From positions 1-27,386 of IMG/VR virus record IMGVR_UViG_2648501669_000002: 27,386 nucleotides of DNA. One strand, 5' to 3'. Below the pieces are notes generated by a model. It did not search any database. It was given only the letters and a program-made list of their open reading frames with translations, and was not told where the DNA came from. Positions 3,337-23,733 of the stretch are shown piece by piece. Origin of the DNA: a virus (taxonomy: Duplodnaviria > Heunggongvirae > Uroviricota > Caudoviricetes). Both the position numbers and the translations under genes were made by a program. Positions within the stretch are counted from its first letter, which is position 1. Each line of letters begins with the position of its first letter.

Positions 3337-3540
3337 ATGAACAAAAAGACCTGGTTTCGCGCATACATGTGGGCGCTGGTATGCGTCCTCGTTTCTCTCA
3401 TTCTGTATGCAGGACTACTCCCCCGAATGATTTCATCAGACAGCTCCTTCCTGGTATTGCTGGGCATTTTCATTGCCATGCTGTACCCGGCAGGCGTTGT
3501 TCGCCTTTTCAGTAGGTACATCAAGGAAATCAAACAATGA
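3337..3540 (+). CDS. Small membrane protein (67 aa, two predicted TM helices)
   Basis: Track ORF with AAAGGA SD. Two hydrophobic stretches (WALVCVLVSLILYAGLL and FLVLLGIFIAMLYPAGVV). Stop overlaps the start of the SPFH gene (ATGA at 3537-3540). Confidence 0.55.
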   Translation: MNKKTWFRAYMWALVCVLVSLILYAGLLPRMISSDSSFLVLLGIFIAMLYPAGVVRLFSRYIKEIKQ

Positions 3541-4367
3541 AGAAATTCAAACTCTTTCAGATTCTCCCGCTTTTTGCTGCCATCCTGCTGGTTGGTTGCG
3601 ATCGCGTTGAGCCAGGTAATGTGGGCATCAAAGTCAACAAACTGGGCGACGACAAAGGCGTCGGTGAAGTGGTTGGCGTTGGACGCTACTGGACAGGCTG
3701 GAATACAGAGGTTTACATCTTCCCAACCTTCAAACAAATGAAGACCTACGATGAGCCGTTCAGCTTTCAGATGAGTGACGGCACAACCATCGGCTATCAC
3801 ATCGGTGTGGCCTACAAGGTTGATCCATCCAAAGTTACTACAGTGTTTCAGACCTACCGCAAAGGCGTGGATGACATTACCGACACTGACCTGCGCCAGA
3901 AGATCGCCGACGCACTCAACCGACTGGCCAGCAAAATGACCACCGATAAATTTATCGACGGTGGCAAGTCTGAACTGCTGGATTCAGCACTTAAAGACAT
4001 TCAGGAGGAAATGACACCTATCGGCATTCAGGTAATGAGCCTCTCTTATGTCGGTAAACCGGAATACCCACCAACCGTTATCGACAGCATTAATGCCAAA
4101 GTTACGGCAAACCAGAAAACCCTGCAACGCGAACAGGAAGTCAAGCAACGTGAAGCAGAAGCCAACATGTTGCGCGCAGAAGCTGCCGGACAGGCTGATG
4201 CCATTCGCACAAAAGCCCAGGCTGAAGCCGACGCCATTCGTTTGCGTGGTGAAGCTCTGCGCCAGAACCCCGGCGTTATGGAGCTGGAAGCAATCAACAA
4301 ATGGAACGGCACGCTGCCGCAATACATGACCAGTAATACTGCTGTTCCGTTTGTTCCGGTGAAGTAA
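3537..4367 (+). CDS. SPFH/band-7 (prohibitin/HflK-like) domain lipoprotein
   Basis: Track ORF of 276 aa. N-terminal signal peptide with lipobox (LLVGC). Central region plus a Q/E/A/R-rich coiled-coil tail (QREQEVKQREAEANMLRAEAAGQADAIRTKAQAEADAIRLRGEA) is typical of SPFH proteins. Confidence 0.7.
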   Translation: MKKFKLFQILPLFAAILLVGCDRVEPGNVGIKVNKLGDDKGVGEVVGVGRYWTGWNTEVYIFPTFKQMKTYDEPFSFQMSDGTTIGYHIGVAYKVDPSKVTTVFQTYRKGVDDITDTDLRQKIADALNRLASKMTTDKFIDGGKSELLDSALKDIQEEMTPIGIQVMSLSYVGKPEYPPTVIDSINAKVTANQKTLQREQEVKQREAEANMLRAEAAGQADAIRTKAQAEADAIRLRGEALRQNPGVMELEAINKWNGTLPQYMTSNTAVPFVPVK

Positions 4368-4434: not shown

Positions 4435-4581
4435 ATGCACAAAGCCTTTGAACGATGGATGCGCCAGCGTTACGGCAATCGCTATGACCTGACAAGGGAT
4501 GTTGATGGCTACTACTGCCGCGAAATTGTGAAACGAATGTTTGAAGTGTGGTGTCACGCTCACGGCCTGTACGCCGTGTAA
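4435..4581 (+). CDS. Hypothetical small protein (48 aa)
   Basis: In-frame Met 19 of track ORF 4381..4581 with AGAGGA SD 6 nt upstream; last gene of the rightward early block before a terminator. Confidence 0.4.
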   Translation: MHKAFERWMRQRYGNRYDLTRDVDGYYCREIVKRMFEVWCHAHGLYAV

Positions 4582-4719
4582 TCCATGTCACTGTCAGAAG
4601 ATTAACCCATGTACACACAAAAAAACCGCTTGCCATGCCGTAATCAGTCAGGTTACATTTCCGCTGCACCTCATAAAACGGGTGCCGGGTTTCGCAGCCT
4701 GCTGACAACCAAAGCGCAC

Positions 4720-4740
4720 AACCGCGCCAGCGGTTTTTTT
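4720..4740 (+). terminator. Candidate rho-independent terminator
   Basis: Read directly: stem AACCGC/GCGGTT with GCCA loop, followed by a 7-T run (AACCGCGCCAGCGGTTTTTTT). Confidence 0.5.
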
Positions 4741-4752
4741 GTGCGTACTGTA

Positions 4753-4781
4753 TTGCCACGTCTTTTTCGCACACGAATTAT
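4753..4781 (+). promoter_or_regulatory. Candidate sigma70 promoter (TTGCCA-17 nt-AATTAT)
   Basis: Read directly; predicted start site falls at the 5' edge of the structured GC-rich element. Not scored computationally. Confidence 0.35.
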
Positions 4782-4788
4782 GGCGGGG

Positions 4789-4850
4789 CGTACGGGGCCG
4801 ACTTCGGTCGGGCCGGGTTCTTTGGTTGCCGGTACTGCGAACCCCGTACG
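4789..4850 (+). other. GC-rich nested stem-loop element (possible structured 5' leader, small RNA or protein-binding site)
   Basis: 9-bp inverted repeat CGTACGGGG (4789-4797) / CCCCGTACG (4842-4850) enclosing a 5-bp stem with UUCG tetraloop (4798-4811) and CCGG-containing dyads; non-coding in any convincing frame. Confidence 0.3.
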
Positions 4851-4919
4851 TCTCGCCACCCACAGTTTCGCAGCTCTGGATGGTGAGTTTTCAAAACTTA
4901 CAACCAAAGAGGCCACCCC

Positions 4920-5150
4920 ATGGCAAACCGCAAACAGCACCGCGCTATCGCGGAGCGTCGTCACATCCAGACTGAAATCAACCGCAGACTTTCCCGCGCA
5001 TTCCGCGTCGCTAAAATCATGCACATCAATATGCTGCATGAGCGTAGCTGCGAACTTTCAAACCTCTATTCATCCGCTGTTTTCAGCTATCTGGCGGATG
5101 ATCTGCGCGAGCTTCAGCAGCTCATCCAGCAGCAAAACAAACTCCATTAA
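4920..5150 (+). CDS. Hypothetical small basic protein (76 aa)
   Basis: Track ORF with AAAGAGG SD 7 nt upstream; first gene downstream of the promoter and leader candidate. Confidence 0.45.
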   Translation: MANRKQHRAIAERRHIQTEINRRLSRAFRVAKIMHINMLHERSCELSNLYSSAVFSYLADDLRELQQLIQQQNKLH

Positions 5151-5222
5151 TTCCTGTTCCGGGCCTTTCCTGCACCTTGCGGCGGGAGGCCTTCGCACAT
5201 CTGTAGTAAAGAGAATTGCAGC

Positions 5223-5612
5223 ATGATTGACGCTCATGACTTCACAAGATGGGTGCGGACACAGGACACCCGTCTGGCTCCCGTTCTTCAGGGATTATTT
5301 GATCTTTACATCCGTGGTCGTGACAACAGAGCACGCACTACAAAACCGGAGAATGCGGACACCCTTTATTTCACAGTAGACGACTGCTACCGCGTGGACT
5401 TCACACCACACGGGCTGGCGTTGCACTGCCTGACACCACACGGCGAATCACTGCTGGCGTATTACGACTCCCCGGCCTCCGTATTCGCGGCAATGCTGGC
5501 GCATCGCACTGCTGGCGGGTGTGCCTCGCTGAGTGAATACACCGCTGAATTTAACCGCCTTTCCGCCATCTTCTCGCAGGAGTGGCAGCGCGTGACGGGA
5601 TACCAGCCATGA
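5223..5612 (+). CDS. Hypothetical protein (129 aa), translationally coupled to gpA
   Basis: Track ORF with AAAGAG SD; stop overlaps the ATG of the replication gene (ATGA at 5609-5612). Confidence 0.55.
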   Translation: MIDAHDFTRWVRTQDTRLAPVLQGLFDLYIRGRDNRARTTKPENADTLYFTVDDCYRVDFTPHGLALHCLTPHGESLLAYYDSPASVFAAMLAHRTAGGCASLSEYTAEFNRLSAIFSQEWQRVTGYQP

Positions 5613-8509: not shown

Positions 8510-9469
8510 ATGAAAATTTGTATCGACGACGGCTCCACCAACATCAAGCTGGCATGGACTGAGAACGGCGAACGCCGCAACGCCATCAGCCCGAACAGCT
8601 TCAAGTCGGAATGGTCAGCGCCGTTCGGTGGCACGCAGCCCGCGAACTACATGCTTGATGGCGTGCGCTATGGTTTTGATCCGGTCAGCGATCGCTTTGT
8701 CCAGACGACCGACACGCAATACCAGTACAGCGATGTGAATGTTATTGCCATTCATCATGCGCTGGTCAAATCAGGCATCACACCACAGGAGGTGGATGTG
8801 GTTGTCACCCTGCCACTGAGCGAGTATTTCGATACAAACGCACAGCCGGACATGGCCAACATCAGCCGCAAAAAAGCGAACGTTATGCGCCCGGTGGAGT
8901 ACCAGAACGGCGAAGCATTCACTATCCGTAACGTGCGGGTTATGCCTGAATCCATTCCGGCAGGCTTTAAAGCACTGGCTGACATGAGTCCGTTTGAATC
9001 CCTGCTGATTGTGGATTTGGGCGGAACCACGCTGGATGTGGCAAAGGTTCAGGGGCAACTGGCAGGTATCAGCCAGGTGTTTTGCGATCCACACGTAGGC
9101 GTTTCTCTGATGGCCGATGCCGTGCTGTCGGTGATGGCCACCAACGGTATGCGTACCAGTCACCACATCGCTAATACCATTATCGAACATCGCCACGATG
9201 AAGCCTGGCTGCGCCAGCACATCCACAATGACGCGCATTACGCCAGCCTGATGGCAGTTATTCGTGAAAAGGAGGAAACACTGAAACAACGCGTGATCCG
9301 CGCGCTGGCGGGTTTTTCGGGTTACGGGCGGGTGATGGTTGTCGGTGGAGGGGCGGAGATTGTGGCACCCGCCATCCGCGAAGCCTGCGGAGTTAATGCG
9401 ACTTTCATCGCGGACGGGGTGCCACAGTTTGCTCTGGTTAATGGGCTGTACGCAATGGACAAGGAGTAA
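8510..9469 (+). CDS. parM: ParM-like actin-type segregation ATPase
   Basis: Track ORF of 319 aa. N-terminus MKICIDDGSTNIKLAW closely matches plasmid R1 ParM (MLVFIDDGSTNIKLQW, from memory), with further ParM-like segments (ISPNSFK, QYSDVNVIAIHHAL, DLGGTTLD). AAGGA SD. Confidence 0.85.
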   Translation: MKICIDDGSTNIKLAWTENGERRNAISPNSFKSEWSAPFGGTQPANYMLDGVRYGFDPVSDRFVQTTDTQYQYSDVNVIAIHHALVKSGITPQEVDVVVTLPLSEYFDTNAQPDMANISRKKANVMRPVEYQNGEAFTIRNVRVMPESIPAGFKALADMSPFESLLIVDLGGTTLDVAKVQGQLAGISQVFCDPHVGVSLMADAVLSVMATNGMRTSHHIANTIIEHRHDEAWLRQHIHNDAHYASLMAVIREKEETLKQRVIRALAGFSGYGRVMVVGGGAEIVAPAIREACGVNATFIADGVPQFALVNGLYAMDKE

Positions 9470-9473
9470 ACCA

Positions 9474-9785
9474 ATGACGACACCAACCAGACGGATAAGT
9501 TTCTATCTGAAGCCCGCCGCCGTCAAGAACGAAGGCGAAGCATGCGCCTGGCTGGACAGCCTTACACCAGAAGCCCGCAAAAGCGGCCAACGCGTGGCTT
9601 TTCTGGCCGGGCTGGCACTTCTGAAAATGAATCCGGCAGAGGCTTACCGACTGGCTGCATGGGCTGATGATGAAGCGTTATCAGTGACACAGACCAGGAC
9701 AGAACGCCCCGCATCACAGCCAGTATCAACCGCACAGATAACCAGCCAGATGGCCGGGAATATCCAGGCGTTATTTCCTGAATAA
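9474..9785 (+). CDS. parR: ParR-like centromere-binding adaptor
   Basis: In-frame Met 46 of track ORF 9339..9785, 4 nt after the parM stop. RRISFYLKP...LDSLTPEARKSGQRVAFLAGLAL parallels R1 ParR (RRTIAFKLNP...LDSIPQGERSRLNRAALTAGLAL, from memory). Confidence 0.7.
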   Translation: MTTPTRRISFYLKPAAVKNEGEACAWLDSLTPEARKSGQRVAFLAGLALLKMNPAEAYRLAAWADDEALSVTQTRTERPASQPVSTAQITSQMAGNIQALFPE

Positions 9786-18739: not shown

Positions 18740-19888
18740 ATGACCTGGCCATCTGTCACAATTGAACAGTACAACACGTTCAGTAGCTCGCCGGACGGCG
18801 TGGAAAATACGCTGCTGTTTGTGGGCAATGCACAAAACAACAAAGGTAAGGTTCTGCCGGTTAATGCCAACAGCGATCTGGATGAACTGCTGGGAACAAA
18901 CGCCAGCCCGCTGAAGAACTTCCTTCGGTCTGCGCTGACCAATGCCGGACAGAATGCCTTTTTCTATGTTGCCGTTCTGCCGGAAGCCGGCAAAGGCAAA
19001 GAAGCGACGCCAGCCTGCCAGGTATGGCAGAACGCCATACTGGCGGCTCAGGAAACTGTTTCAGTTGAAGGCGTGGTGATCACCGAACCGGTCAGCACGA
19101 AGGATGACATCAACGCCATACAGGCGTTACGTCAGACCATCATCAATAAATATCAGCGCCGCATCTGGTTCATTCTGACCATTGCCGCCAATAACGGCAG
19201 CAAAACCTGGGCAGATTACGTTGCTGAACTGACCACGCTACAGGAAGGCATCGCCGCCCCGCAAATCATGCTGGTTCCGGAAATTTTTGGATTTGAACCG
19301 GGCGTTCTTGCCGGCCGTCTGTGTAACAGCGCCGTCACCATTGCTGATAGTCCGGCGCGTGTGGCAACCGGAGCGCTGTCCGCACTGAAGACCACGGAAC
19401 GCCCGAAAGACAGCGCAGGGCAGGCAATTGATCTCGACACTCTGCAGGCACTGGCAACCGCCCGCTACAGCGTGCCCATGTGGTATGCCGACTATGACGG
19501 CCTTTACTGGGCTGACGGTGTAACACTTGAGGTGGAAGGCGGGGACTACAACGTCATTGAGCATGTCCGCATTGCTGATAAGGTGGCGCGCCGCGTGCGG
19601 CTGATGGCCATCCCCAAGATTGCCGACCGCTCGCTGAACAGCACGCCGGGCAGCATTGCCGCACATGAAACGCTGTTTGCCCGCCCACTGCGTGCCATGG
19701 CGAAATCCATGCAAATTAACGGCATCACGTTTCCGGGCGAAGTGAAATCGCCCCGGAAAGGCGACGTAGTTATCACCTGGCAGGACGAAAAGACGGTCAG
19801 CATCAGCATTGTCGTCCGCCCTTACGCCTGCCCTAAAACCATCAAAGTGGGCATTCAGCTGGATAAATCTCTGGAGGAAAACGCATGA
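18740..19888 (+). CDS. Major tail structural protein, sheath-like (382 aa)
   Basis: In-frame Met 45 of track ORF 18608..19888 with CAGGAG SD 7 nt upstream; size and position (before a tube-like gene, chaperone and tape measure) fit a contractile-tail sheath. No clear similarity to P2 FI recalled. Confidence 0.5.
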   Translation: MTWPSVTIEQYNTFSSSPDGVENTLLFVGNAQNNKGKVLPVNANSDLDELLGTNASPLKNFLRSALTNAGQNAFFYVAVLPEAGKGKEATPACQVWQNAILAAQETVSVEGVVITEPVSTKDDINAIQALRQTIINKYQRRIWFILTIAANNGSKTWADYVAELTTLQEGIAAPQIMLVPEIFGFEPGVLAGRLCNSAVTIADSPARVATGALSALKTTERPKDSAGQAIDLDTLQALATARYSVPMWYADYDGLYWADGVTLEVEGGDYNVIEHVRIADKVARRVRLMAIPKIADRSLNSTPGSIAAHETLFARPLRAMAKSMQINGITFPGEVKSPRKGDVVITWQDEKTVSISIVVRPYACPKTIKVGIQLDKSLEENA

Positions 19889-20340
19889 CGACCCGCATTA
19901 ACGGCATGGCGTTTGACACTTTTATCGGTGGAACGGATATCCATGTGAAAAGCATCTCACTGGACATCAGCGATGAAAGCGCCGTTGCCAAAACCCGTGG
20001 CATCCCTGACGGCAAACTGCGCGGCCCTGTCAGTGCCGAAGGTGAAATCGAAATGAGTACCCGCAGCTTTAACCAGCTCGGGGAAGTGGCTGCTCAGGCG
20101 GGATCGTGGCGTGACCTGCCGCCAATGGATTTTGTGTTTTACGCCAATACGGGAACCGAAGAAATCCGCGTTGAAGCCTTCGGTTGTGAGCTGATGCTTT
20201 CCGGCCTGTTAAGCATTGACACCGAGAGCGCAGATCTGACCACGCACAAAATCAAGTACGTGGTGGCAAGCCCTGACTTTGTGCGTATCAACGGCGTGCC
20301 CGTTCTCTCAGAGAACGACGTGCGCGGACTGATGGGGTGA
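19885..20340 (+). CDS. Tail tube-like protein (151 aa)
   Basis: Track ORF overlapping the sheath-like stop (ATGA); size and position fit a tube protein. Family call by synteny only. Confidence 0.45.
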   Translation: MTTRINGMAFDTFIGGTDIHVKSISLDISDESAVAKTRGIPDGKLRGPVSAEGEIEMSTRSFNQLGEVAAQAGSWRDLPPMDFVFYANTGTEEIRVEAFGCELMLSGLLSIDTESADLTTHKIKYVVASPDFVRINGVPVLSENDVRGLMG

Positions 20341-20343
20341 ATC

Positions 20344-20640
20344 ATGCAGGAGCATGAGCGCACCATTATCACTCTGGGCATTCTGGGCGGAATCGCTGCC
20401 GCAAGTCGGGTGCTGGCTGGCGCAGAGCCGATTACGTTGCGGTTGTTTGTGGGCCGAACCCTGCTGGGGAGCGCGCTGGGTGTTTCTGCCGCTGCCCTGC
20501 TGGTTCGCTACCCGAACCTTGACCCACTGGCCATTGCCGGCGCAGGCACCGCAATGGGCGTTGCCGGTTACCAGATTGTTGAAATCTTCCTGCGTCATAT
20601 GCGCCGGAAGCTGGGCGAGAAAGAGAACAAAGAGGAGTAA
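20344..20640 (+). CDS. Putative holin (98 aa, three predicted TM segments and a charged C-terminus)
   Basis: Track ORF. Hydrophobic stretches (IITLGILGGIAAASRVLAG; LLGSALGVSAAALLV; LAIAGAGTAMGVAGYQIV) followed by RHMRRKLGEKENKEE; sits immediately upstream of the endolysin. Confidence 0.6.
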   Translation: MQEHERTIITLGILGGIAAASRVLAGAEPITLRLFVGRTLLGSALGVSAAALLVRYPNLDPLAIAGAGTAMGVAGYQIVEIFLRHMRRKLGEKENKEE

Positions 20641-20645
20641 CAGCA

Positions 20646-20753
20646 ATGCTGTCCCGCAGGGAACAAAAAGCTGCCGCCATTGCCTGGAAAATTATCCGGG
20701 CACTGTGGCACTGGCTGCACAAACCTCAACAACCCCGTAAGGAGCAAAAATGA
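20646..20753 (+). CDS. Possible small lysis-associated ORF (35 aa)
   Basis: Not in the track. ATG at 20646 with GAGGAG upstream; stop overlaps the endolysin ATG (ATGA). Translation MLSRREQKAAAIAWKIIRALWHWLHKPQQPRKEQK is amphipathic and basic. Could instead be untranslated spacer. Confidence 0.25.
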   Translation: MLSRREQKAAAIAWKIIRALWHWLHKPQQPRKEQK

Positions 20754-21091
20754 AACTCTCTGATAAACAACAAAAATTTACCGTCATGATCGGAAAACTC
20801 ATCCAGTTTGCCCATCAGCGCGGTTATGGCCTGACGTTCGGTGAAGCGTACCGCACGCCAGAACAGGCAAAACTCAACGCACAAAAGGGATCAGGCATTG
20901 CCAACAGCCTGCACTGTCAGCGGCTGGCCGTGGATTTTAACCTGTTTATTAACGGTGAATATCAGACCCGCACAGAGGCCTACCGCGAGCTGGGCGAGTA
21001 CTGGGAATCCCTTGGTGGCGCATGGGGCGGTCGTTTTAAAAACCGCCCGGATGGCAATCATTTCAGCCTTGAGCACGACGGCGTGCGCTGA
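20750..21091 (+). CDS. Endolysin, peptidase M15 (VanY-like zinc D,D- or L,D-peptidase) family
   Basis: Track ORF of 113 aa with AAGGAG SD. Zinc-ligand pattern H-x6-D (SLHCQRLAVD) and a C-terminal DGNHFSLEH as in M15 peptidase endolysins. Confidence 0.75.
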   Translation: MKLSDKQQKFTVMIGKLIQFAHQRGYGLTFGEAYRTPEQAKLNAQKGSGIANSLHCQRLAVDFNLFINGEYQTRTEAYRELGEYWESLGGAWGGRFKNRPDGNHFSLEHDGVR

Positions 21092-21098
21092 TTTTACG

Positions 21099-21128
21099 CT
21101 TAATAAGCCTTCCTGCAGGCTTATTAAG
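21099..21128 (+). terminator. Near-perfect 30-bp palindrome / hairpin after the endolysin
   Basis: 12-bp stem (CTTAATAAGCC.../...GGCTTATTAAG) followed by a moderately U-rich stretch; 8 nt downstream of the endolysin stop. Confidence 0.4.
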
Positions 21129-21155
21129 CCCTCTTATTCTTGACTTTAAAAGGAA

Positions 21156-21449
21156 ATGATGATGAACGATAAAAACACCCAGACTACCGCAGAGAACACC
21201 ATCACTTTGCAGGTCGGCGAGCATGAACTGACGTTTATCCCGACCGTTAAAGCCTACAACGATCTGCAGAACGACTTCATGCCGGATAACAAAATCGCGC
21301 CGCTGAAAAACTACCTGCGCCGCATCGTGATTAAAGAGCACCGCGATCTGCTGAACCAGTTGCTGGAAAAACCAGGAATGCCGGCCAGCCTGGCAACAGC
21401 CGTGAATAACGAGTTTGTGCCGGAAGTGGAAATCACCGTAAAAAAATAA
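21156..21449 (+). CDS. Tail assembly chaperone (P2 gpE / lambda gpG analogue)
   Basis: Track ORF of 97 aa immediately upstream of the tape measure gene; it ends in the A-run that forms the slippery site. Confidence 0.7.
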   Translation: MMMNDKNTQTTAENTITLQVGEHELTFIPTVKAYNDLQNDFMPDNKIAPLKNYLRRIVIKEHRDLLNQLLEKPGMPASLATAVNNEFVPEVEITVKK

Positions 21450-21637
21450 AAAGCCATCTGGGGGCCATTGATCGCAATGACCTTACCCGGATGCTGATCC
21501 TGCGCCGCCACTGGCTGCCCGGCGAGGATGACTCGCCGCAGTCACTGGCTGCCGCCGTCTGGCTGGATAACCACTACTGGGAAAATATGAGCATCGCCGT
21601 CAATAACGGCATTATCCGTGCTTTTAAGGGATCGTAA
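21156..21637 (+). CDS. Frameshift-extended chaperone product (gpE+E-prime / G-T analogue), about 160 aa
   Basis: Chaperone frame joined to the -1 frame at 21440-21446; the conserved position of this chaperone frameshift upstream of tape measure genes is established knowledge. Confidence 0.5.
21440..21446 (+). other. Programmed -1 ribosomal frameshift slippery heptamer A_AAA_AAA
   Basis: Read directly. The -1 frame stays open from the heptamer for about 64 codons to the TAA at 21635-21637, which overlaps the tape measure ATG (TAATG). Confidence 0.55.
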
Positions 21638-23733
21638 TGTCACAACAGCGCCTTGAATTACTTCTTGAACTGACAGACCGCCTGACAAGGCCGTTGCGTG
21701 CAGCCGGGCGACAGGTTCAGGGATTTGCTGCAACAAGTCGGGGAGCCTTTCGGGACATTGCTACCGGAGGCGCTGCGCTCTGGGGAGTGGGTGCAGCCAT
21801 TCAGGGGGCACTGATGCCAGCCATTGAAATGGACAGGGCGCTCGGTGAGGTGAAATCACTGGGCGTCGCAGAGTCCGGATTGCGTAAACTCAGCCGCGCC
21901 GCCGTTGATTTCACTATGGAATACGGCGGGGCTGCGCAGGATTTTGTGCGTGCTTCTTACGACATCCAGTCAGCCATTGCCGGGTTAACTGACGATGAGC
22001 TGTCCCGCTTCACCACCGCATCAGCAACGGTGGCAGCAGCAACCAAATCCAGCAGCCAGACCATTACCGCCTACATGGGCACCATGTACGGCATCTTTAA
22101 AGACCAGGCTGATGCCATGGGAAAAAGCAAATGGGTGGAGCAGGTCGCCGGGCAAACCGCCACCGCCGTGCAAATGTTTAAAACAACCGGCGATAACATG
22201 TCAGCAGCGTTCACCACGCTGGGTGCCAGTGCAAAAGCGGCCGGTATTGATGCGGCTGAACAGTTCGCCGTGCTGGGACAACTACAGGCCACAATGAGTG
22301 GCAGCGAGGCCGGGACAAAATACAAGGCATTTCTTGCCGCAGTAGGCAGCGCCCAGAAAAAGCTGGGGCTTAATTTCGTGAATAAAGACGGCACGATGAA
22401 AAGTGTTGTCGAGATCATGAAACTTATCAGGGGTAAATTTGGTGATCTGTCAAAAGTGGCTGATTCCGATTTGCTGAAAAGCGCCTTTGGCTCCGATGAA
22501 GCTGTGGCCATGATTAAATTACTCAATGCGGACATTGGCGGACTTGAAAAGAATATCGCCACGCTGGGCAATATCAAAGGTATGGATAAGGCTGTCGAAA
22601 TGGCGCAGGCCATGGCTGATCCATGGGAACAGGCCGCCGCAATTATTAACGGCATTCGCATCGAAATCGGCACGCAGTTGCTGCCTGTTCTGTACCCGTT
22701 TATCCAGAAAAGCAACGAAGGCGGTAAATCCTTTGTTGCCTGGTTACGTCTGTATCCCAATATCACACGGGCTATTGGTTTACTGTCTGCCGCCCTGCTG
22801 GGCATTGCCGCAGTGGGTGCCGTTGTCAACATTATGGTGGGTGTGGCGAAGTTTGTCTGGACAGGACTGCGGCTGGTCTGGCTGGCAGCAGTTGCACCCC
22901 TGAAGATTCTCATTCTGCTGAAACGCACACTGACGGCTACCATGTGGGCGTTCACTGTAGTTGCCCGAACGGTCAGGGCGCTGTATCTGGCCATGTCCAT
23001 TGCTATGGGAACATACAACGTCAAAGCAAAAATTCAGCTGGCGCTGCTGAAATTACAGCGCGCCGGACTCTGGCTTTATTCTGTTGCGCTGGGTGCCGCC
23101 GGCATAGCAATGAAAATCTACACCGCAGTCACCAGCGGAGCTGCAATTGCAACACAGTTACTTTTCAGCCCCATCACATTAATCATCCTGGCACTGGCTG
23201 CGCTGGGCGTGGGCATTTATTTCCTGATCACCCGCTGGGATGAGATTAAAGCCGCGCTGATGGATACCGCCGCCTTTCAGTGGGTGGCTGAAATGGTCGG
23301 CAGTATGGGGGCATGGTTCGGCAATGCATGGAACACAATCCAGGACGGCTGGAATGCACTGGTTAACTATTTTTCCACGCATTCACCTCTGGACGCCCTG
23401 AAGGATATCGCCGGCGGCATCCTGAACATTTTCAGTAACCTCTGGGAACTGGTGAAACAGTCCTTCAGTGATTCATGGGGCTGGATTGTAGGCAAGCTCA
23501 ACATGATCCCCGGCGTCAATATCGACACACCGGAAAGCACAGGAAGTGGCGAAGGCTCCGTATTAACCGGCGGCAAAGCCATCAGTGCGGGACCGGGCGG
23601 CATTGCGGCAGAGATGCAGAACAACAGCGAAAACCAGACCACCATCGACAACTCCCGTCGTGTGGTTAACGTCAATGTGCAGGATCCATCCCCTGCCCGT
23701 CTTAACGAGTGGATGGAGCTGCATGCATACTGA
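21637..23733 (+). CDS. Tail tape measure protein
   Basis: Track ORF of 698 aa; alpha-helical, Ala/Gly-rich sequence with hydrophobic segments in the C-terminal half; directly after the chaperone frameshift. Confidence 0.8.
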   Translation: MSQQRLELLLELTDRLTRPLRAAGRQVQGFAATSRGAFRDIATGGAALWGVGAAIQGALMPAIEMDRALGEVKSLGVAESGLRKLSRAAVDFTMEYGGAAQDFVRASYDIQSAIAGLTDDELSRFTTASATVAAATKSSSQTITAYMGTMYGIFKDQADAMGKSKWVEQVAGQTATAVQMFKTTGDNMSAAFTTLGASAKAAGIDAAEQFAVLGQLQATMSGSEAGTKYKAFLAAVGSAQKKLGLNFVNKDGTMKSVVEIMKLIRGKFGDLSKVADSDLLKSAFGSDEAVAMIKLLNADIGGLEKNIATLGNIKGMDKAVEMAQAMADPWEQAAAIINGIRIEIGTQLLPVLYPFIQKSNEGGKSFVAWLRLYPNITRAIGLLSAALLGIAAVGAVVNIMVGVAKFVWTGLRLVWLAAVAPLKILILLKRTLTATMWAFTVVARTVRALYLAMSIAMGTYNVKAKIQLALLKLQRAGLWLYSVALGAAGIAMKIYTAVTSGAAIATQLLFSPITLIILALAALGVGIYFLITRWDEIKAALMDTAAFQWVAEMVGSMGAWFGNAWNTIQDGWNALVNYFSTHSPLDALKDIAGGILNIFSNLWELVKQSFSDSWGWIVGKLNMIPGVNIDTPESTGSGEGSVLTGGKAISAGPGGIAAEMQNNSENQTTIDNSRRVVNVNVQDPSPARLNEWMELHAY

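Follow-up and report, generated by a model that had tools for sequence, protein, structure and literature searches.

Does the lysis cassette of an HP1-like prophage stand in an unusual place, or is something else about it unusual? The question is raised by a 27,386-nucleotide stretch of DNA from a virus of the Caudoviricetes (IMG/VR record IMGVR_UViG_2648501669_000002, positions 1 to 27,386), which was analysed as a whole and is called the window here. Positions 20,344 to 21,091 hold a holin gene, a 35-codon open reading frame (ORF) that we call p35, and the gene of an M15-type endolysin, enclosed by tail genes. An earlier note made from the bare sequence, the original prediction, took this for a non-canonical lysis module placement in a P2-type element. 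We find that the placement is the family norm, long known, and unusual against P2 only; the real anomaly is the absence of spanins. Our reading, to which we give a probability of roughly 0.85, is that the cassette is a late lysis module in its usual slot, with holin and endolysin roles as predicted from their families, and that it belongs to a clade that lacks Rz/Rz1 and carries a hairpin-containing spacer and p35.

The evidence comes largely from a survey of about 100 loci (17 from species-representative genomes and 80 from IMG/VR), which was anchored on the tail tube protein and is independent of the lysis genes. The clade of the window comprises 23 survey loci with tube proteins at least 91% identical, and also covers 41 E. 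coli genomes, E. albertii and one divergent metagenome contig (L119). In 23 of 23 survey loci of this clade p35 is present and Rz is absent. Among the outgroup loci with a holin and an M15 lysin, by contrast, Rz is present in 64 of 64, with an overlapping Rz1, and there is no p35-like ORF. The close relatives thus split cleanly into those with Rz/Rz1 but no peptide and those with the peptide but no Rz/Rz1, a division that could be of interest to the phage lysis field.

The lysis module and its slot

The original prediction described a three-transmembrane holin-like gene, a possible coupled 35-residue ORF and an M15 peptidase gene inserted between the tube gene and the chaperone and tape measure genes. 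All three were found there on the plus strand, where the order over 18740–23733 is sheath, tube, holin, p35, M15 endolysin, chaperone, DUF6890 ORF and tape measure. It also held that the lysis genes of P2 lie outside the sheath-tube-chaperone-tape measure block, which agrees with the P2 annotation: this reads L-X-Y-K-lysA-lysB-lysC-R-S, with FI-FII-E/E'-T located separately, so that Y-K-lysA-lysB-lysC fall between L/X and R/S. The conclusion that the arrangement is non-canonical does not hold, because the comparison was made with P2 rather than with HP1. In the HP1 record the order is sheath (orf23), tube (orf24), hol, lys, orf25 (Rz-like), orf26 and orf27, with orf26 belonging to the PF10963 chaperone family as well. 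Yersinia phage vB_YenM_324 (YenM324) and Salmonella phage SI7 have the order tube-holin-endolysin-spanin-chaperone-tape measure, and the module of Cronobacter phage ESSI-2 occupies the same slot. Among the survey loci of sufficient length for a judgement, all except one have lysis genes between tube and chaperone. The window shares this late-gene layout of HP1-like Peduoviridae, its module following the tube gene and preceding those of the PF10963 chaperone and the tape measure protein.

The arrangement has been published (PMC7312051; PMC10612066), including the location of HP1 hol and lys between ORF24, the tube gene, and ORF25 (Adamczyk-Poplawska et al. 2020, PMC7312051). That a P2-type element has had its lysis module relocated to an atypical site, which would make this a new genome architecture, could be argued from P2 itself, where Y-K-lysABC stand between head-completion genes and R/S. 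With exactly the present slot used in HP1, YenM324, SI7, ESSI-2 and nearly all of the about 100 surveyed relatives, and already described, we regard this explanation as hardly credible. The exceptional survey locus, L062, has a tube-chaperone gap of about 300 bp (4454–4767) with no lysis genes; these are located elsewhere or are missing.

The contents of the slot vary. HP1 carries the gene of a PF16080 pinholin and that of a lysozyme with a signal-anchor-release (SAR) segment, and loci L081–L088 carry another lysin type. Judged from these gene orders, the tube-to-chaperone slot is a conserved site for exchangeable lysis modules. The HP1 module hol-lys-orf25 (Esposito et al. 1996; PMC7312051), the late-transcribed module of a P2-related myovirus, corresponds to that of the window in slot and order, but it consists of the pinholin, a SAR muramidase (Phage_lysozyme) and the Rz-like orf25 product, whereas the window has a PF04550 holin, a cytoplasmic M15 enzyme, p35 and no spanin. 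P2 resembles the window in belonging to the same virus family and in having a late-operon lysis module, an annotated attenuator and an E/E+E' frameshift chaperone before the tape measure gene; it differs in having the module ahead of the tail-completion genes, flanked by L/X and R/S, in the families of holin and endolysin, and in the LysB/LysC spanins.

The holin of the window reaches 97.7 bits against PF04550 (cut-off 25; E 5.5e-28; profile positions 1–85 of 86) and matches PHROG_175 'holin' with E 1e-32. As expected for a PF04550 holin, it has several predicted transmembrane helices and a charged C-terminal tail (RHMRRKLGEKENKEE). Its three hydrophobic segments span approximately residues 7–27, 34–56 and 61–83, the third being marginal on the Kyte-Doolittle scale, and AlphaFold2 places helices at 2–24, 29–55 and 61–97 (mean pLDDT 74). 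This agrees with the three-transmembrane topology originally predicted. There is no dual-start motif. The holin of Escherichia phage phiKT, gp29, is also a PF04550 protein and shares 29% identity with it over 75 residues (pairwise E 3e-12). Within the clade the holin gene evolves at a dN/dS of 0.04, with 5, 2 and 40 variable sites at codon positions 1, 2 and 3. A 128-residue alternative-frame ORF over the holin gene (20354–20740) was rejected since the variation sits at the third codon positions of the holin itself.

The junction between the holin and endolysin genes is an insertion hot spot in relatives. Locus L092 carries a DNA methyltransferase gene at this point (4752–5498), L094 a 56-bp remnant (4752–4807), and several E. 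coli prophages bear the annotation 'M15 | DNA-methyltransferase'.

The endolysin matches PF13539 (Peptidase_M15_4; E 3.2e-11, 44.1 bits, cut-off 25) and the endolysin families PHROG 1768, 465 and 2649. It shows the pattern H-x6-D ... H of zinc ligands, with H55, D62 and H104 in the motifs SxHxxxxAxD and DGxHF. Together with D101 these residues align with the motifs SRHLHGLAVD and DGVHF of an L-alanyl-D-glutamate endopeptidase of solved structure (8q2g_A), and we take them to be ligands by analogy with the M15 fold of the T5 endolysin. The structure-database search was used for motif alignment only, its whole-sequence E of 0.07 being weak. The protein is most similar to L-alanyl-D-glutamate endopeptidases and is a predicted wall-degrading enzyme, in agreement with the peptidase family first assigned. 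It is 66–90% identical (most 74–88%) to the lysins of spanin-bearing relatives, and the within-clade dN/dS of its gene is 0.07. No N-terminal signal or SAR segment was found in the endolysin, which by established holin-endolysin biology should therefore depend on the holin for release.

Missing spanins and the hairpin spacer

The original prediction had noticed no spanin-like gene pair downstream of the endolysin gene, and this was borne out. In outgroup loci Rz starts from a few to about 55 bases past the lysin stop codon, whereas in the window the endolysin gene is followed after only 64 bp by that of the chaperone. When 142 Rz/Rz1 sequences from the survey were used as queries, no match was obtained either in the window or in a 40-kb stretch that spans a complete prophage copy (L004), and the annotation of L004 lists no spanins. 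A screen for lipoboxes and N-terminal transmembrane domains gave nothing credible in the window, where its hits were artefacts of alternative frames only, while it recovered Rz/Rz1 in the controls YenM324 and SI7. PHROG scans of 20 further window ORFs revealed no other lysis genes. The window thus contains no recognisable two-component spanin of the Rz/Rz1 type, and the lipobox screen of all its ORFs of 25–200 residues yielded no credible unimolecular spanin of the T1 gp11 type. A lipobox-like ORF at 21012–21143 was rejected because it lies in an alternative frame, loses its start in L005 and L006 and is truncated in L017 and L018. Nothing was encountered of what the original prediction had named as counter-evidence, i.e. 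a holin candidate lacking transmembrane helices, a peptidase lacking the zinc ligands, or a canonical lysis cassette elsewhere in the element.

Spanins might still be present and have been missed, either elsewhere in the element, perhaps beyond the window, which stops in the tail-fibre region, or with an unconventional topology; separated or atypical spanins do escape detection (Kongari et al., PMC6139136). The homology and feature screens of the complete copy L004 found none, as did its annotation, and we consider this explanation very improbable. A candidate for an atypical pair lies in the early region, where a 67-residue ORF (PHROG_1130 'membrane protein', two long hydrophobic stretches) is directly followed by a 276-residue SPFH-domain lipoprotein gene (window 3337–4367) whose product has a signal ending in LLVGC. 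This lipoprotein and small membrane protein were rejected as spanins on account of size, domain content and early-region position; the pair also occurs in L004 and has no periplasmic domain like that of an i-spanin. It looks like a moron, unrelated to lysis.

The spanin-less state is stable and not a recent defect, because the lineage is old and has persisted under selection, with a low dN/dS both within the clade and against L119. For the tube, holin, lysin and chaperone genes the within-clade values are 0.04–0.14, at up to 10% DNA divergence, and those against L119 are 0.04–0.10, at a dS of 0.45–1.4.

The 64-bp spacer that stands in place of Rz/Rz1 is occupied by a conserved hairpin (Table 1), with an RNA folding energy of -21 kcal/mol (z = -3.5). 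The hairpin is found in all 64 p35-type entries, some of which are duplicates of the same contigs, and in no spanin-bearing locus. In L119 the upper stem is altered on both sides, from CCT/AGG to GCC/GGT. The element may be an attenuator, a terminator or an RNA-stability element; an attenuator-like role is plausible, given the attenuator annotated where the lysis genes of P2 end.

Comparison with the nearest spanin-bearing phages underlines the difference. YenM324, SI7 and ESSI-2 have a homologous PF04550 holin and an M15 endolysin (about 80% identity) in the same flanking order, but their holin and endolysin genes abut or overlap with nothing in between, and Rz with an embedded or overlapping Rz1 follows directly after the endolysin gene, with no hairpin spacer. 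These sister phages form a natural control, with homologous holin and endolysin, spanins kept and no peptide.

The 35-codon ORF p35 as a candidate disruptin gene

The small ORF between the holin and endolysin genes, which the original prediction had listed as possibly coupled, is indeed coupled to both neighbours, and its TGA stop overlaps the ATG of the endolysin gene as ATGA. It is absent from RefSeq annotation, and at least 41 complete E. coli genomes have records that omit it. The predicted product carries a net charge of +7 and three Trp residues, with a hydrophobic fraction of 0.43 and a hydrophobic moment of 0.5–0.7; AlphaFold2 models a helix at residues 4–24 (pLDDT 76). No transmembrane segment or signal sequence was found in p35.

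In our judgement p35 is probably a genuine gene, constrained in its helix and free at both ends. The alternative is that the 108 bp between holin and endolysin are the leftover of an old insertion, with an ORF that is not made or has no role; the clade would then have no outer-membrane step, and cells would rupture by shear or osmotic stress after wall degradation, or lyse poorly. Several features speak against such a leftover. Neither the start codon nor the part encoding the helix is disrupted in any of the 36 clade sequences, and the only indels are of -3, +9 and -9, all multiples of three. Residues of the hydrophobic face change to hydrophobic ones only, except for W23R in one sequence. 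Contig L119, which has the same gene order and no spanins, encodes a 39-residue version with 60% identity that overlaps both neighbouring genes. There the ORF has stayed open with a good start signal at a dS of about 0.9, with six synonymous changes in the helix and a Pro-Gln stretch. Over the helix core (codons 8–27) pN is well below pS between the window and L119 (0.17 against 0.60; Fisher p = 0.006), and the differences include a two-base change, CGG to AGA, that keeps Arg; the termini are unconstrained.

Homologs of p35 are confined to this genomic context. No homolog was detected by tblastn against 50,697 phage records at E values up to 10, and a search of 5.8 billion proteins returned seven near-identical clusters only. 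A full HMMER scan of 1.84 billion representatives added one further relative (P0012, 61% identity) and three repetitive false positives; when P0012 served as the query in turn, nothing but P0012 came back. Scanning metagenome and viral contigs for the pattern led to the same clade only. A programmed frameshift between p35 and the endolysin gene, suggested by an A-run at the junction, was rejected because the relative frame is -1 in the window and +1 in L119; it is also excluded by three loci in which p35 stops two codons early.

As to function, p35 resembles gp28 of the spanin-less phage phiKT, a small, helical, cationic and amphipathic peptide whose gene lies between those of the endolysin and the PF04550 holin (Holt et al., bioRxiv 10.1101/515445). 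The two peptides are alike in net charge and hydrophobic fraction (+7 and 0.43 in both). According to the same work, gp28 complements a lambda spanin defect and has no homologs, and in the literature covered here it is the sole named disruptin. Working criteria derived from it (Holt et al.) are a length below 80 residues, a net charge of at least +4, a predicted amphipathic helix and location in the lysis cassette of a spanin-less phage. With 35 residues, a charge of +7, a predicted helix and a position between holin and endolysin genes in a clade devoid of spanins, p35 agrees with each of these. Differences from phiKT are the length of gp28 (56 residues against 35), the reversed order endolysin-gp28-holin, the lysozyme-type endolysin and the virulent podovirus lifestyle. 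Whereas the function of gp28 was shown experimentally, that of p35 is proposed by analogy.

We envisage the following sequence of events. The three-helix PF04550 holin would, as its family membership suggests, accumulate in the inner membrane and open holes at a set time. The signal-less M15 endopeptidase could then leave the cytoplasm and, if it acts like other members of its family, cut the peptidoglycan cross-bridges. Translated p35 would fold as a cationic, Trp-rich amphipathic helix and, after the wall has been cut, might destabilise the outer membrane, replacing spanins in the manner of gp28. We therefore propose, tentatively and with less than even confidence, that p35 may have functionally replaced Rz/Rz1; it would then represent a second, unrelated family of disruptins and the first in a temperate myovirus.

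A number of observations weigh against this proposal, some of them against p35 being a selected gene at all. Premature stops occur in 4 of the 36 clade sequences, although both positions concerned (codon 28 or 34) are past the helix and spare it. The within-clade changes, 12 synonymous, 20 non-synonymous and 2 to stop, do not differ from the neutral expectation (P = 0.15), there is no third-position bias in p35 within the clade, and a test of whether amphipathicity has been preserved is no more than suggestive (P = 0.09). The link with gp28 is by analogy only, as no similarity between the two was found by BLASTP or hhalign, which is to be expected for such peptides. Presence of p35 and loss of spanins coincide perfectly, but this amounts to a single evolutionary event within one lineage. 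The 50,697 deposited phage records include no member of the clade, so that virion production is undocumented for it there. Moreover, lambda mutants devoid of spanins still lyse in shaken culture with no added Mg2+, so a replacement for spanins may not be strictly needed.

The near-neutral substitutions, the premature stops and the missing annotation fit the leftover explanation, as does the DNA methyltransferase gene (L092) or 56-bp scar (L094) found at the same junction. Also in its favour, some 13–15% of the phages that infect Gram-negative bacteria lack an identifiable spanin (PMC6139136 for 13%). In view of the constraint seen against L119, we nevertheless find a functionless ORF rather doubtful, if a serious contender.

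It is less probable still that p35 acts as a lysis-timing factor on the holin from the cytoplasmic side, as an antiholin-like or holin-assisting peptide comparable to T4 RIII, P2 LysA or Lcc6 of the Shewanella phage LambdaSo, with the loss of spanins being unrelated. Its gene directly follows that of the holin and is coupled to it, the holin has no dual-start motif, which makes a separate regulator plausible, and small accessory proteins acting at the holin step are documented, as with Lcc6. Most antiholins and Lcc6 are membrane proteins, however, whereas p35 has no transmembrane segment, and it occurs in 0 of 64 spanin-bearing loci even though their holins are homologous (54–83% identical to the holin of the window or to a reference holin of the family).

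If p35 does replace the spanins, it would bear on an issue that a 2026 paper still calls an open question, namely whether spanin-less phages other than phiKT encode disruptins. The cassette and its position are already known; what is unreported, and offers a modest lead, is that a variant without spanins has been stably maintained and carries the gene of a cationic peptide missed by annotation. As E. coli is the host, the standard assay for complementation of lambda Rz/Rz1 can be applied directly. In addition, a 35-residue peptide rich in Trp, Arg and Lys would be worth attention as a starting point for antimicrobials.

The element and its neighbouring genes

The sequence marks the element as an HP1/ESSI-2-like Peduoviridae prophage of Escherichia with an intact appearance. 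Its best phage matches are ESSI-2-like phages, Yersinia YenM324, Salmonella SI7, Pasteurella F108 and Haemophilus phages; because of these matches and since the tube protein belongs to the Pfam family Phage_HP1_Orf24, the element cannot be called P2-type in a strict sense. The window is 96–99% identical over aligned stretches to a prophage of E. coli CFIAFB20180511, which is located between selD and a split topB and has complete sets of head, tail, replication and regulatory genes. A prophage in E. albertii NBRC 107761 encodes exactly the same tube protein, and IMG/VR contig L039 matches every query protein of the lysis region at 100%. The end of the window falls inside the tail-fibre region, and about 5.5 kb of the element lie past it. 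A tailocin or a secretion system similar to the type 10 secretion system (T10SS) was rejected as an interpretation, given the presence of genes for portal, terminase, capsid, replication and integrase.

Table 1. Positions and assignments of the lysis genes, associated signals and flanking tail genes in the window.
Feature	Positions	Strand	Assignment or evidence
Tail sheath gene (DUF2586)	18740..19888	+	PF10758 E 2.9e-126; PHROG_907 'tail sheath'
Tail tube gene (HP1 Orf24 family), left border of slot	19885..20340	+	PF10772 Phage_HP1_Orf24 E 1.1e-50; PHROG_1182
Holin gene, 98 aa, PF04550 Phage_holin_3_2 (Phage holin family 2)	20344..20640	+	Pfam, PHROG_175
Shine-Dalgarno sequence GAGGAG for p35	20632..20637	+	in last holin codons, 8 nt before ATG 20646
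p35, 35-aa ORF, MLSRREQKAAAIAWKIIRALWHWLHKPQQPRKEQK	20646..20753	+	candidate outer-membrane disruptor (disruptin-like)
Endolysin gene, 113 aa, M15 zinc peptidase	20750..21091	+	PF13539, endolysin PHROGs
Conserved hairpin, 13-bp stem, GCTTAATAAGCCT-loop-AGGCTTATTAAGC, then T-rich run	21098..21129	+	terminator-like scan
Tail assembly chaperone gene (PF10963), right border of slot	21156..21449	+	PF10963 E 1.6e-26
DUF6890 ORF	21491..21637	+	PF21830 E 3.5e-24
Tail tape measure protein gene	21637..23733	+	PF10145 E 7.5e-29; PHROG_28 E 2e-90

The start of the sheath gene in Table 1 was taken from the RefSeq annotation of an E. coli prophage with 98.9% identity. Just 5' of its stop codon the chaperone gene contains an A7 slippery run (21440–21446), and the frame of DUF6890 (-1) is open from 21410; in locus L013 a natural deletion fuses the chaperone and DUF6890 into one 96-residue product. 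The DUF6890 ORF is probably a -1 frameshift extension of the chaperone, similar to E/E+E' of P2. The central part of the tape measure gene (22786–23414) has no nucleotide match in the otherwise 96–97% identical E. coli copy, and several loci of the clade match the tape measure of the window over part of its length only.

Apart from the structural genes, the window encodes a ParM-type actin and a partition protein (8510–9785), in related strains as part of a chromosomally integrated prophage; a plasmid segregation system is odd cargo for an integrating P2/HP1-like element. The complete copy L004 (E. coli NZ_CM143727.1) is inserted in topB, the gene of DNA topoisomerase III, next to selD, leaving two topB fragments (3385–3768 and 39177–40001) that are both annotated as pseudogenes. 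The topB remnant is separated from the last prophage gene of L004 by the gene of a Hok/Gef toxin.

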